DNA of 64,000 nt, from IMG/VR virus record IMGVR_UViG_3300025150_000002, positions 128,001 through 192,000 of that record; one strand, given 5' to 3'. This document shows positions 184 through 59,197 of this stretch, piece after piece. The notes beneath the pieces were generated by a model that worked only from the letters and a program-made list of their open reading frames with translations, did no database searches and was not told the DNA's origin. How positions within the stretch are numbered: the stretch's first letter is position 1; every line of letters begins with the position of its first letter. This DNA comes from a virus. Its lineage: Duplodnaviria; Caudoviricetes. The position numbers were made by a program, and so were the translations under genes.

Positions 184-216
184 ATGGAGCTCATGCGTGT
201 ATGGTGCGGCCCATGA
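184..216 (+). pseudogene. Displaced original 5' end of thymidine kinase (MELMRVWCGP*)
   Basis: Matches TK N-terminus MQMLKVFCGPM at 1054; its TGA overlaps the endonuclease ATG at 213. Confidence 0.7.
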
Positions 217-1067
217 GCCACAGTCCAAGGCCGATCATCTATCCTGAGATGGGTCGAGAGCTCGCCTACTTCCTCGGCCTCTTCCTCGCAGACGGCTGTT
301 TCGAGCGCCGAGGCCGGGACTACGATTACAGCACTGTTGCCATCTCTCTGCGCGAGTCGGATGGTTACATCCTTGATGAACTAGGTGAGTGGTTGAGCGG
401 ATACAAGCTGCGTCCTCGGCTGGGACAAATGAAGAGGGGTCCATCGGCATCAGCCGCAGCCGAGGATCGCAAAAGGTTGCGGTTACACTCAAAACTCTTT
501 GTCGAGTACCTGACTTCAGAGCTCGGAATCCCAGTGCAGAACAAGGGCAAGCTTATGGGAATGCCGTCTCAGATCAACAATGAGATGGCTTCAGACTTCA
601 TTCGTGGGGTGTTCGACGGCGATGGTCACATCGCCTATCTTCCAAGTGGAAAGTTCTACGTATGTACTATGGGAGCGCTACTGCTACTGGAGGACATAGC
701 GCGCAAGCTGGCCGAATTGACCAGTGTTAGGCTATTAAGGCCGACAAAGCACAATTCTGGGGATGTTCACATCCTGCACTATTACAGTCGCGCCGAAGCC
801 CACGCCGTGTGCGAATTTCTCTACCAGGACCACCCGAGGTTCTTCATGGATCGAAAGCGCAATACCTGGCTGAGCTTTGTCGAGGAGAGATCATTGCCCA
901 TCAAGCGACCCGTTCGGTGGGATGACGATGAGACGGAAAGACTTATGGCGCTCAAGCAAGATCGCACGAGCCATGGGGTGATAGCCGAGGTCCTGGGTAG
1001 ATCAACCGCGTCTGTGACACAGCGCCTCCACGCCCTGAGAAAGTCGGGAACCTATGCAGATGCTTAA
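213..1067 (+). mobile_element. Free-standing LAGLIDADG homing endonuclease with C-terminal HTH
   Basis: Two LAGLIDADG motifs (YFLGLFLADG, FIRGVFDGDG); ATG 213 preferred over 201. Confidence 0.85.
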
Positions 1068-1659
1068 AGTCTTCTGCGGTCCGATGTGCGCCGCCAAAAC
1101 CACCGGGGCACTACACGCGGCACGGCGCTATGCCCGTCATGGGAAGCGCGTGGTCTTGATAAGACCGGCCGGTAGTCGCCGTGCTCACGAGGGCGATCCT
1201 GAGGCTCTGTCGACCAAGAATGGTGAGTCGTTTCCTAGCTTCGACGTAGAGCGGGTCGAGGACATCTTCGAGCGCTCACGGGGTGCAGACGTAGTCTGGC
1301 TCGACGAGCCGAACCACTTCAGGCACGAGTCTAGGTTATTGCACATCATCCCTGAGATAAGAAGGTCGTCCATTATCCTTGTCTCCGGTCTAGGGGCCAC
1401 ATCAGAGCTAGAGCCCTTTGGAAGCTCAATGCCGTTCTTTCTTGCTACGGCCGATGATGTGCAATGGAGGTCGGCAGACTGCGACCTCTGCCAAACCCAC
1501 GGTACAGCGACAAGGAGCCTCTACATCGGAGAGGCTCCTAAGTCAGGTCAGTTGAAGGCCGGTGGAGCGGAGAGCTATAGACCCGTGTGTCCGAAGTGCT
1601 GGACGTCCGCAACGGCGCTCAGCCCATCAGAGCGATGGGCCGTGTTCGCCGCGTCCTAG
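1054..1659 (+). CDS. tdk: Thymidine kinase
   Basis: CGPMCAAKT P-loop, LDEPNHF Walker B, GLGAT, Zn-binding CxxC pairs, GGAESYRPVCPKC. Confidence 0.88.
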   Translation: MQMLKVFCGPMCAAKTTGALHAARRYARHGKRVVLIRPAGSRRAHEGDPEALSTKNGESFPSFDVERVEDIFERSRGADVVWLDEPNHFRHESRLLHIIPEIRRSSIILVSGLGATSELEPFGSSMPFFLATADDVQWRSADCDLCQTHGTATRSLYIGEAPKSGQLKAGGAESYRPVCPKCWTSATALSPSERWAVFAAS

Positions 1660-2329: not shown

Positions 2330-3184
2330 TTATTCCTCCGTGGGGGTTGGGGTGCCTGACAGGTCGTTTATACCCAAGGCCCAACACCTCCGAAGTGCGG
2401 CAATGACGCCTTCGCTCAAATCGTAACCGAGCGACCTCATTCCGCGACTGGAAGCCGCGTAGCACGTCGTTCCTCCGCCTACGAACGGGTCGAATACCGT
2501 TGATCCGGTCGGAATCCCGCTAACAGTTATGAGCTTTACGGCGAGCTCAAGAGGAAATTCGTGCCTGTGCATCTTCTTGGTCGTCGACCCAGTCGTCTCA
2601 TACGGCAAGTACCAGATATCGCCAGGACAATGAACAGCATCAGATGCGCTTTTCCACCGCTTGATGTTCGTCTTGTCGGCGTAGGCGACGCCCACACCCT
2701 TGGCTTTTCTGTTGAGCGGAACGGCGCTCTTCTCGGGTTGCTTGATGAAGCAGATCACGTACTCCCAGCAGTAGTTGAGTAGGTGGTCTGAGTTGATCGG
2801 CTGGAAATGTCCCCGCGATACCACCTCAGTTCGCGCCTTGTTCCCACAGGACTCGCATTTCTCGACCCATCCGCCCACAGCGATGGACTTGACCCAGATG
2901 ATCGTCTGGCCGGGCGCCAGTTGACCGCCTCCTCCAGCAAGGATCTCTCGTTGAACATCGAACGGTCTATCGAGCTTCTCCTTGATCTGCCCGAAGATCA
3001 CGTAGGCGCGGCCGCCCGGCTTCAGGGTCCGGGCGAACACACCACCCAACTTACGCATAAGCTCATCGGTGTAGCCGTTCCTCTTGAAGTAGGGTGGACT
3101 GGTGATGATCAAGTCACAGCTGAGATCCTGAACCTCAGGACAGCCGTCTGCCACATCACCCACGTAGAATGAACCTTTAGCCAC
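2330..3184 (-). CDS. N4/N6 DNA methyltransferase, beta class
   Basis: ITSPPY (motif IV) N-terminal, HRHEFP, FDPFVGGGTT (motif I) C-terminal; CxxC insertion. Confidence 0.88.
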   Translation of the reverse strand: MAKGSFYVGDVADGCPEVQDLSCDLIITSPPYFKRNGYTDELMRKLGGVFARTLKPGGRAYVIFGQIKEKLDRPFDVQREILAGGGGQLAPGQTIIWVKSIAVGGWVEKCESCGNKARTEVVSRGHFQPINSDHLLNYCWEYVICFIKQPEKSAVPLNRKAKGVGVAYADKTNIKRWKSASDAVHCPGDIWYLPYETTGSTTKKMHRHEFPLELAVKLITVSGIPTGSTVFDPFVGGGTTCYAASSRGMRSLGYDLSEGVIAALRRCWALGINDLSGTPTPTEE

Positions 3185-3277
3185 GGGAGCACCTCCGAGT
3201 TCTCATACTACAGGCCTACTCGCCGGAGTACAAGTCCGCACCCGACGATTCGTGTAGGATCCAGACAGGAGTAAGAG

Positions 3278-3607
3278 ATGGGCAAAATTAGGAGCGGACT
3301 AGAGGCCGGACGTTACGCTTACAGCGCACACTCACTCCTACTATCGGGCGACATCGTAGAGGTGTTTATCGGCAGGTGGGAGACCACGTCCGAGACCTCT
3401 CGCGTCTTGAAGAAATACCCGATAGAGGAGACAGTTGATGAGGGTGAGGTGCTTTGCACGATCAAGCTCCGACGCCCCATCTCACTAGACGAGTATCGAG
3501 AGGTTCACCGACCAGAGATCAGACCGATGGTCCGCAGCGTCGGTGCGGACGTCTCGATGGTCATGCTTCCGGCCAATATGGTCTGCACCATCCCAGATTC
3601 CATGTAG
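3278..3607 (+). CDS. Hypothetical protein
   Basis: AGGAG RBS, first gene of a + operon. Confidence 0.6.
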   Translation: MGKIRSGLEAGRYAYSAHSLLLSGDIVEVFIGRWETTSETSRVLKKYPIEETVDEGEVLCTIKLRRPISLDEYREVHRPEIRPMVRSVGADVSMVMLPANMVCTIPDSM

Positions 3608-3616
3608 GAGTTACGT

Positions 3617-3862
3617 ATGAGCGATATGCCCGAGCCAACCCGCATCAAGGTGTCTTTCGGCGTCGACGTCGACATCAAGTTACTGAACGAAATCAAGGCG
3701 CGGCTTGAGAACCTACGTCCTGGGTCGGTGGACTACTGCGTGGAGTGGGACAGGCTCAAGGCCCACTACACCCTTTTCCAGTCACGGCTCGATGGGGAGT
3801 GCTCGGCCTACATGAACATCGCCAAGGAGCAAGCTCGTCAGCTATTCGGCCTCTCCGGGTAG
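3617..3862 (+). CDS. Hypothetical protein
   Basis: AGGAG RBS, operon context. Confidence 0.6.
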   Translation: MSDMPEPTRIKVSFGVDVDIKLLNEIKARLENLRPGSVDYCVEWDRLKAHYTLFQSRLDGECSAYMNIAKEQARQLFGLSG

Positions 3863-57121: not shown

Positions 57122-57610
57122 CTACGTCCAGTTATCACCCTTGGCGATGTGTCGGATCATCGTCGGGCTCACACCGAACCGCCGTGCCAGAGCCCTCTTC
57201 GCGGTCCCCAGTTCCAGCTCATATCGAATGGCTGCTACATCGGATGATGTGAGCTTTCGGTTCCTAGCGTTATTCCCTCTGGGAACGCTCCGACGCTTGC
57301 AGTTCTCTGAGCGAGTTTCCCACATAAGGTTTTCGATGCTGTTGTTCGTCGGGTCGTCATCTAGATGACTGGCCTCCAATCCGTCCGGGCACGGACCAAC
57401 GAATGTCTCTAGCACGGCTCGATGGAGAAGTTTCATCACACGGCCGGACGCGCTCGACAGTGTGAGCTGGGTGTAGCCTCTCTTGGCCAGATAGCGTCCT
57501 TTCAAGACCCTTACACGGGGTTTTCCTCGCGGCCCGATCAGACTGCGCACTCGGCCCTCTGGGTGGACCTCGTATCGTCCTTCAAATCCAGGAAGCGGCG
57601 TCCATGTCAT
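57122..57610 (-). mobile_element. NUMOD4-HNH homing endonuclease with C-terminal HTH
   Basis: WTPLPGFEGRYEV, LHRAVLETFVGP, ASHLDDDPTNNSIENLMWET. Confidence 0.88.
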
Positions 57611-58399: not shown

Positions 58400-59197
58400 C
58401 TACCTTTTGAGAAGCTCCAGGAACCGGTCGTGCTTGCGTTTGAGAAAGGGCCCCTCTGAGTACATCCAGAGACACAGCCTCTCTATCTGCCGATTCCCCT
58501 CCACGCAGAGGGAGTGAATGCTCTTCATCTTTCTGATATTGCCTCTTACTTCTACCGCCCTGGCCATCCGAGCCTGAACGCTTCTCAAGAATTCCTCACG
58601 ACCCGCCATACACCATCGCCATCGCTTGTAGTTAGGCGAGTTTCTCGGTACGACATGGTAGATCGAGCCGTCCCCATCGAAGTAACCACGGATAAAGTGA
58701 GCATCGAGTGTCTGAGGAATCTGGTTTGGATAGACCAGCTTGTGGGTTTTACTCTGCACCATGCCTTGCGCGGCGAGTGCTCGACTAAGCGCCACGCTTT
58801 TGATGCGACAAGCGTAGATCCTCTTGTGGCCTGGACGATCGCGGTTTAAGAGCTTCAACGTCTTCTTAGGGCAAAGTTCGTTACGGAACAGCACAACCAG
58901 TTCGTGATCCGTGAGGTCTAATGAGACACATGAGCCCTCAATGTTGCAGCCATCAGCCATCAGCAACCCAAACAAGTAGGCCTTTGCCGGCGTGTTGATC
59001 GTATCGAAGTAGTCTTCGATGATCTCGTGTTTGCGCTTGTGCGACCACGGGGTCCTGGGTTTGAACCCATCTAACTTGAGCAACCTATTCCGAACAGTGC
59101 CGAGATCGACGCCATAGAGCGCGCCGATAGTTTTGTAGGTCAGGCCGGCGTTGTAATGGTCGAGGAGAACAGTCGAGTCAAGGTGTTGATGTGACAT
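58400..59197 (-). mobile_element. Free-standing LAGLIDADG homing endonuclease with N-terminal HTH
   Basis: YFDTINTPAKAYLFGLLMADG, FIRGYFDGDG; TTGACA-17-TAGTGT promoter 6 nt before ATG. Confidence 0.88.

Follow-up and report, generated by a model that had tools for sequence, protein, structure and literature searches.

A LAGLIDADG Nuclease Gene Within the P-Loop Coding Region of a Jumbo-Phage Thymidine Kinase Gene, Accompanied by a Probably Imported Gene Start

In a jumbo phage, the thymidine kinase gene (tdk) is interrupted near its 5' end by a free-standing LAGLIDADG nuclease gene, with the first 10 codons of tdk left in front of the nuclease and a complete kinase gene, beginning with a second and differently spelled version of the same 10 codons, overlapping its end. 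We consider it likely that a nuclease of a thymidine kinase (TK)-linked LAGLIDADG lineage entered tdk between codons 10 and 11 and carried with it the tdk start of its donor, with homing as the inferred mechanism. All positions given without a locus name are those of the window, i.e., the whole 64,000-nt stretch of DNA that was analysed, which comprises bases 128001-192000 of a 203.5-kb IMG/VR virus record (IMGVR_UViG_3300025150_000002).

Results

Anatomy of the Interrupted tdk Locus

The features at the left end of the window all lie on the + strand. Positions 2-181 hold the 3' end of a conserved upstream gene of about 150 aa (stop TAG 179-181; 151 aa in locus L005), which in relatives lies directly 5' of tdk; its C-terminal stretch GAKLVQPKK precedes tdk in L019, and matching DNA precedes tdk in L017. 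Beginning 2 nt after the stop of this gene, a mini-ORF of 10 codons (184-216) encodes MELMRVWCGP, and its stop TGA (214-216) overlaps the ATG (213-215) of the LAGLIDADG gene in the arrangement ATGA. The LAGLIDADG gene itself runs from 213 to 1067 (stop TAA 1065-1067) and encodes a monomeric, two-motif protein of 284 aa, or of 288 aa if the alternative in-frame ATG at 201 is used (ORF 201/213-1067). The last nuclease codons in turn overlap the start of a complete tdk (1054-1659), the first 30 nt of which (1054-1083) form the replacement 5' end, MQMLKVFCGP, or MLKVFCGP when read from ATG 1060, while the sequence from codon 11 (nt 1084) onward is of the resident lineage.

The TK ORF is 201 aa long from ATG 1054 and 199 aa long from ATG 1060, in either case ending at 1659, and it matches the Pfam TK family (6.5e-19) over profile positions 3-176 of 176. 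The true start may be the second ATG, since gene call P0001 begins there (MLKVF...) and the same geometry is seen in two low-GC phages, L020 and L107, discussed below (MLTVI...). The existing annotation places the TK start at ATG 1060 and the nuclease start at ATG 201. A sequence-only reading of this DNA had described the ORF from ATG 184 with its TGA lying over the endonuclease ATG at 213, the complete TK beginning MQMLKVFCGPM after the endonuclease, and the different codons of the two copies (GTA TGG TGC GGC CCA versus GTC TTC TGC GGT CCG), and the letters and the full-length Pfam match bear out this description throughout. The P-loop of this phage TK family reads GPMCAAKTT (1075-1104), with an alanine in place of the second glycine of the Walker A consensus GxxxxGK[ST]; most of the closer TK relatives share the alanine, and some have a G.

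The locus is not an assembly artefact, as nine loci (L001 and L005-L012), including JGI, NCBI, ENA and Logan assembly contigs from different samples, show 100% identity across the portion of positions 1-1700 that each of them covers, and the left junction is present in all six of the nine that reach it. The same region is found on L006 (NCBI GCA_902729895.1 contig, 355,736 bp) and on contigs of up to 368,865 bp. Because contigs so much longer carry the identical region, the 203.5-kb virus record probably represents only part of a genome that exceeds 350 kb.

Relatives with an Empty Site

A search with the TK sequence retrieved 77 relatives at 41-74% identity, and their alignment gave a family N-terminus of M-x-x-[M/L]-RVWCGPM, continuing CAAKTT. 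The tdk of P0026 begins MELMRVWCGPM and is thus identical to the mini-ORF at 10 of 10 residues. The gene order around tdk recurs without a nuclease in at least nine related phage lineages, in which tdk starts at the position of the mini-ORF (P0002, P0004, P0005, P0006 with three contigs, P0009, P0024, P0026 and L102, plus the more distant L103 and L104). Where the flanking sequence suffices, the shared order is, on the + strand, a methylase, a dNK gene, the gene of about 150 aa and tdk, followed on the reverse strand by a hypothetical gene and a methylase. The LAGLIDADG gene is absent from these neighbourhoods wherever the contig has enough flank, so that the nuclease occupies the tdk site in this phage only.

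In the closer relatives, tdk starts at most about 40 nt past the stop of the upstream gene, and at most 10 nt past it in all but one. Given that the upstream gene here stops at 181, that the mini-ORF begins at 184, and that the relatives start tdk at this very place, the mini-ORF is, judged by these alignments, the first 10 codons of the original tdk, severed from the rest and left as a remnant of its 5' end. The sequence-only reading had proposed aligning the locus with endonuclease-free alleles, with the thought that a MELMRVWCGP mini-ORF upstream of tdk in nuclease-free relatives would speak against an insertion; the relatives have no such separate mini-ORF, and the corresponding sequence in them is the start of tdk itself, fused to MCAAKTT. 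Its placement of the element in the CGPM motif is also upheld, with the insertion point mapping to codon 10/11 (GP/M) in the stretch coding for the P-loop.

An IMG/VR scan with the TK alignment yielded L102-L104, all of them nuclease-free, with L103 and L104 at a greater distance (45-47% identity); IMG/VR scans with single sequences returned nothing useful. In the phage collection, no nucleotide match was found, and the protein matches for TK and for the LAGLIDADG protein were distant only. These searches yielded no nearly identical allele of this phage that lacks the nuclease, the next TK being 74% identical.

TK calls that begin at M11 (P0009 and others) raised the question of whether the same insertion was hidden behind them. 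This was rejected, as L019 has an ordinary GTG start (VEILRVWCGPM). In L019 (2-766), a frame stays open from the C-terminal part of dNK through the gene of about 150 aa, as one called ORF truncated by the contig.

A Lineage of TK-Linked LAGLIDADG Nucleases

The three nearest homologues of the nuclease (P0079, P0080 and P0081; 28-33% identity) are each encoded directly upstream of a TK gene, with a stop/start overlap of 7-11 nt. For P0079, the nuclease gene lies at 363-1268 and the TK gene at 1258-1875; for P0080, in L020, the nuclease gene lies at 3001-3642 and the TK gene begins at 3636 (MLTVITGPM); and for P0081, in L107, the nuclease gene lies at 3001-3795 and the TK gene begins at 3789 (MLTVIVGPM). 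The four TK-adjacent nucleases group as one clade in a maximum-likelihood tree built from 46 hits (UFboot/SH-aLRT 99/87), and in 0 of 500 label shuffles was TK adjacency as clustered on the tree. No TK was found within 2.5 kb of any of 80 more distant phage LAGLIDADG loci, which came from an IMG/VR scan with a LAGLIDADG alignment. Searches of 5.8 and 1.8 billion proteins produced no close relative of the nuclease, the best match being 33% identical, and a word-index protein search retrieved only the nuclease itself.

These four nucleases make up a LAGLIDADG lineage, hitherto without a name, that is associated with thymidine kinase genes of phages. Its ordinary home, as far as these loci suggest, is directly before tdk, with the end of the nuclease gene and the start of tdk overlapping as a unit. 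The nuclease is intergenic in L020 and L107, and no tdk remnant is seen in either; among the sequences searched, no nuclease-free relatives close enough to the L020 phage were found. Since the lineage normally sits immediately upstream of tdk, the new N-terminus of the TK studied here would most simply be the tdk start of the donor, transferred together with the nuclease gene. In both low-GC phages (L020:1-6591 and L107:1-5908), the DNA polymerase III alpha gene is split into a PHP/alpha N-part and a finger/HHH C-part, and a dUTPase gene, two small genes, the LAGLIDADG gene and the TK gene lie between them. The C-part of the L020 polymerase also holds an intein.

The Two Copies of the tdk Start Have Different Affinities

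The two 30-nt copies of the tdk start (184-213 and 1054-1083) lie 870 nt apart in the same frame and share 17 of 30 bases. When compared with the corresponding sequences of L013, L016, L018, L019 and L102, the remnant matches at 23-27 of 30 nt and the working start at 16-18 of 30 nt. The closest of these to the remnant is the tdk start of L016 (27/30 nt and 10/10 aa), all three differences being synonymous. This match, and the position of the mini-ORF where nuclease-free relatives begin tdk, show that it is not a chance ORF. The opposite is seen with L017 (P0024, MQVLKVFCGPM), which matches the working start at 24 of 30 nt and the remnant at 16 of 30 nt, and L017 is, among the relatives compared, the least similar over the rest of tdk (61%). 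The start LKVFCGPM is common to only P0024 and P0028 among the TK relatives. From codon 11 on, the TK gene resembles the relatives that are closest overall, with codons 11-30 matching L018 at 51 of 60 nt.

The working 5' end was therefore probably imported, its best match being the relative that is least similar over the remainder of the gene, with the signal confined to 30 nt or 10 codons. Taken as a test for a gene end of different origin, the comparison gives 24/30 nt to L017 against 16-18/30 nt to the others, a result in which only 30 nt are informative. That a new N-terminus was brought in had already been suggested from the sequence alone, and the different nearest relatives of the working 5' end and the gene body point the same way. 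Nuclease-free alleles that start MQVLKVFCGPM, like the replacement start, are found in P0024 (L017:834-900) and in P0028. These two may belong to the donor lineage, or they may be resistant alleles that outlasted the loss of a nuclease.

The strongest competing explanation, to which we give a small share of the probability, is that nothing was imported at all. The insertion would have duplicated the first 30 nt of the phage's own tdk, and the working copy would have diverged later, e.g., under selection to escape cutting. The 10 codons involved make phylogenetic affinity weak evidence, the gene is of resident type from codon 11 on, and the LKVF starts of the nuclease-free P0024 and P0028 indicate that this spelling can be reached within the family. 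However, it is the unused copy that agrees with the family consensus in all 10 residues, whereas the used copy carries changes at 13 of 30 nt, some of them at otherwise conserved positions, and has the divergent residues (R to K, W to F). From local duplication and later drift one would expect the reverse, whereas a consensus-like unused copy beside a divergent used one is what import predicts. Furthermore, the overlap between the nuclease gene and the tdk start has the same geometry in the distant L020 and L107, which speaks for nuclease and tdk start travelling together. Import of the start with the nuclease thus remains the preferred reading.

The Nuclease Gene Is Predicted to Be Intact

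The nuclease was assigned to the Pfam family LAGLIDADG_3 (2.6e-9); its first half alone matched the same family at 0.0036, below the gathering score. Both LAGLIDADG motifs have an acidic residue before the final glycine. Motif 1, YFLGLFLADG (267-296), contains D27, which together with G28 is nearly invariant in the alignment of homologues, and motif 2, IRGVFDGDG (600-626), contains D137; R131, G132, D135, G136 and G138 are invariant. The AlphaFold2 model (pLDDT 89.9, pTM 0.77) has a tandem alpha-beta-beta-alpha-beta-beta-alpha arrangement. Foldseek searches with this model retrieved the bI3 maturase, I-Tsp061I, I-AniI and PI-SceI/intein endonuclease domains with a probability of 1.00 and E of about 1e-8, and a profile of the nuclease family, searched against the PDB, matched 2dch (3.3e-11) and I-DmoI (about 1e-6). 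With both motif aspartates kept and a confident fold, the nuclease gene is, on these predictions, intact.

Beyond the second motif, a C-terminal three-helix extension (924-1046; helices 238-249, 254-261 and 265-278) resembles a Myb/sigma-70-region-4-like helix-turn-helix (HTH). It gave weak HTH Pfam matches and, with the family profile, weak Myb matches, and it is also present in P0079 and P0081. On the basis of the model, the extension is probably an additional DNA-binding module.

ATG 213 lines up with the N-termini of the nuclease homologues and is therefore probably the native start of the nuclease. Accordingly aligned, it is more likely to be the nuclease's own start codon than the old M11 codon of tdk. 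One base added before 213 would put the mini-ORF in frame with the nuclease. The GC3 of the nuclease gene (63%) is close to that of the TK gene (66%), which suggests that the nuclease is not a very recent arrival.

The possibility must also be weighed that the element inserted as described and that the LAGLIDADG protein has since ceased to home, being either inactive or a DNA-binding regulator of the WhiA kind. The locus is fixed and invariant in all contigs, the nuclease has no close relatives elsewhere, its composition is near that of its neighbours, and the combination of LAGLIDADG domains with a C-terminal HTH resembles WhiA, which is one of the structural matches. WhiA-type proteins have lost the catalytic LAGLIDADG aspartates. 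In this phage, by contrast, an undamaged reading frame retains both catalytic aspartates and the model of the fold is of high confidence, and we regard loss of homing as improbable, slightly more so than a local origin of the gene start.

Lastly, restoration of TK from the old start by RNA or protein splicing, an idea that the shared frame of mini-ORF and tdk across 870 nt and the frequent presence of LAGLIDADG genes in introns and inteins might invite, can be dismissed: positions 1-2500 match no Rfam intron family even at E values up to 1, the nuclease ORF and replacement start fill the insert and leave no room for a ribozyme core, the frame from 184 meets a TGA at 214, there is no Hint domain and no room for one because motif 1 follows the ATG of the nuclease ORF almost at once (starting at residue 19), and a complete TK with its own start lies downstream. 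The earlier proposal that tdk survives without splicing therefore agrees with the lack of both an intron and an intein splicing domain.

Proposed Origin and Working of the Insertion

The import that we favour could have come about as follows. The donor would have had the order nuclease-tdk, sharing homology with the recipient phage only inside tdk. A break near the GP/M codons of the recipient tdk (RVWCGP/MCAAKTT) would have led to transfer of a unit of about 870 nt, consisting of the nuclease gene and the first ~10 tdk codons of the donor. The right junction would have formed by homology in the conserved P-loop codons, giving a resident gene body with a foreign, differently spelled 5' end. 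The left end would have been joined to the nuclease ATG without upstream homology, at a position that is ambiguous by about 1 nt, and this would have stranded the first 10 codons of the resident as the mini-ORF.

In its present form, the nuclease would be expected to cut nuclease-free alleles near the GP/M codons, and to spare its own allele on account of the altered left half-site (GTA TGG TGC GGC CCA to GTC TTC TGC GGT CCG). Near the junction, the phage's own allele and the presumed target differ at only about 4-5 positions, and these half-site differences may or may not confer immunity. Repair of a cut genome from a nuclease-bearing one would copy both the nuclease and the resistant start, with the remnant and the upstream gene as homology arm on one side and the tdk body on the other, along the lines put forward for the WHO elements of yeast.

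The remnant could accordingly serve two purposes, as a left homology arm and as a leader for translational coupling of the nuclease, the latter also envisaged in the sequence-only reading. No Shine-Dalgarno sequence precedes ATG 184 (duplex energy +0.3 kcal/mol), the ones before ATG 201 (-5.6 kcal/mol) and ATG 213 (-5.1 kcal/mol) are weak, and a promoter and terminator scan of positions 1-1800 detected no sites. Together with the ATGA overlap, these features fit translational coupling, in which the nuclease would probably be translated by termination-reinitiation from ribosomes arriving through the upstream gene and the mini-ORF.

A bolder version of this proposal, which we put forward as a doubtful though not far-fetched one, is that the cassette is an active gene drive made up of the nuclease, a resistant tdk start and the old start as arm and leader, and that nucleases of unrelated families, such as LAGLIDADG at tdk and HNH at the adjacent dNK, routinely land on the invariant P-loop codons of kinase genes. 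If true, this would provide a general intron-free route into essential phage genes by means of spare gene starts, and the LKVF-type alleles of P0024 and P0028 could then be resistant alleles left after invasions.

Discussion

The usual view is that homing endonucleases either reach essential genes inside a self-splicing intron or an intein or remain between genes. The tdk locus would represent a third route in phage, taken by a nuclease that carries a spare, differently spelled gene end. Intronless homing in T4-type phages was reportedly described by Belle et al. in 2002 (as cited in PMC8351571). The free-standing homing endonucleases of these phages, SegF, SegG and Mob, are said to be likewise located outside any intron or intein and beside a conserved gene that they presumably cut in nuclease-free genomes, with co-conversion of flanking sequence. 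The L020 and L107 homologues upstream of tdk have exactly this intergenic layout. The T4-type nucleases reportedly differ in being GIY-YIG or HNH enzymes encoded between genes and leaving no gene-end remnant, whereas the nuclease of the phage studied here is a LAGLIDADG protein whose left junction lies inside its target gene.

The arrangement is a mirror image, at the 5' end and in a phage, of two fungal systems, the mORF hybrid genes and the WHO elements. Mitochondrial mORF hybrid genes occur in Allomyces macrogynus (atp6) and in Glomus (atp6, atp9, cox2 and nad3) (PMC3630166). There, too, a free-standing LAGLIDADG (or GIY-YIG) gene lies in a conserved gene accompanied by a divergent second gene end through which the gene remains complete, and the native end is left as a duplicate across the nuclease, the native copy being like that of close relatives and the inserted copy not (PMC3630166). 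They differ in that the 3' end is replaced, that the duplicated tracts measure roughly 50-240 nt (Table 2 of PMC3630166), and that the genome is organellar; in the phage locus it is the 5' end (10 codons) that is replaced, the genome belongs to a dsDNA jumbo phage, and what remains of the old end is a translatable mini-ORF overlapping the nuclease gene.

The WHO elements at the yeast FBA1 locus (Coughlan et al. 2020, eLife, PMC7282813) likewise combine a nuclease with a replacement gene end, displace the old end as a fragment usable as a homology arm, and do so without splicing. Allele-specific cleavage of FBA1 has been reported for one WHO protein (PMC7282813), and the replacement end of the WHO unit confers resistance; in the phage locus, cleavage is predicted only and resistance is presumed. 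WHO proteins are intein-derived and have zinc fingers, and the elements are meiotic, reside in nuclear DNA and replace the 3' end (PMC7282813), whereas the phage nuclease is a plain two-motif LAGLIDADG protein with a C-terminal HTH, and the 5' end is replaced.

Another phage parallel is the nrdA gene of Aeromonas phage Aeh1, split by insertion of mobE (Friedrich et al. 2007, as cited in PMC8351571). Reportedly, a free-standing nuclease gene again lies inside a phage gene of nucleotide metabolism whose function is kept; there, however, both gene halves are needed and assemble as separate polypeptides, while at tdk nothing is missing from the downstream gene, which has no need of the 10-codon piece upstream. 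A layout in which the gene end is replaced is known for fungal mitochondria and yeast, and no description of it for a phage was found in the literature searched.

The remnant is useful in that it narrows the probable cut site down to a few bases and thereby allows a precise target prediction, namely the GP/M codons of the P-loop. Such remnants are short ORFs, which annotation pipelines pass over or call wrongly. Recognition of the pattern would improve phage annotation and would explain mosaic gene ends.

Additional Nuclease Genes in the Same Phage and Its Relatives

An HNH nuclease occupies the neighbouring dNK gene in the same layout (L005:304-1652, about 0.5-1.8 kb before the start of the window). 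A dNK P-loop remnant, ...GKFIVVEGNIG, runs into an HNH_3 nuclease ORF, and the complete dNK gene begins anew at GAFIVVEGNVGVGKS. The P-loops of two neighbouring kinase genes have thus been entered by nucleases of different families, one in each gene. The tdk/dNK neighbourhood is a nuclease hot spot across the relatives; in L018, an antisense gene with HNH_3 and HTH domains (506-1003, - strand) lies just upstream of dNK.

Elsewhere in the window, a second LAGLIDADG gene (58403-59197, - strand) encodes a protein that shares 29% identity with part of the tdk nuclease and has an N-terminal sigma-70-region-4-like HTH, and near it lies a gene for a nuclease with HNH_3 and NUMOD4 domains (57125-57610, - strand).
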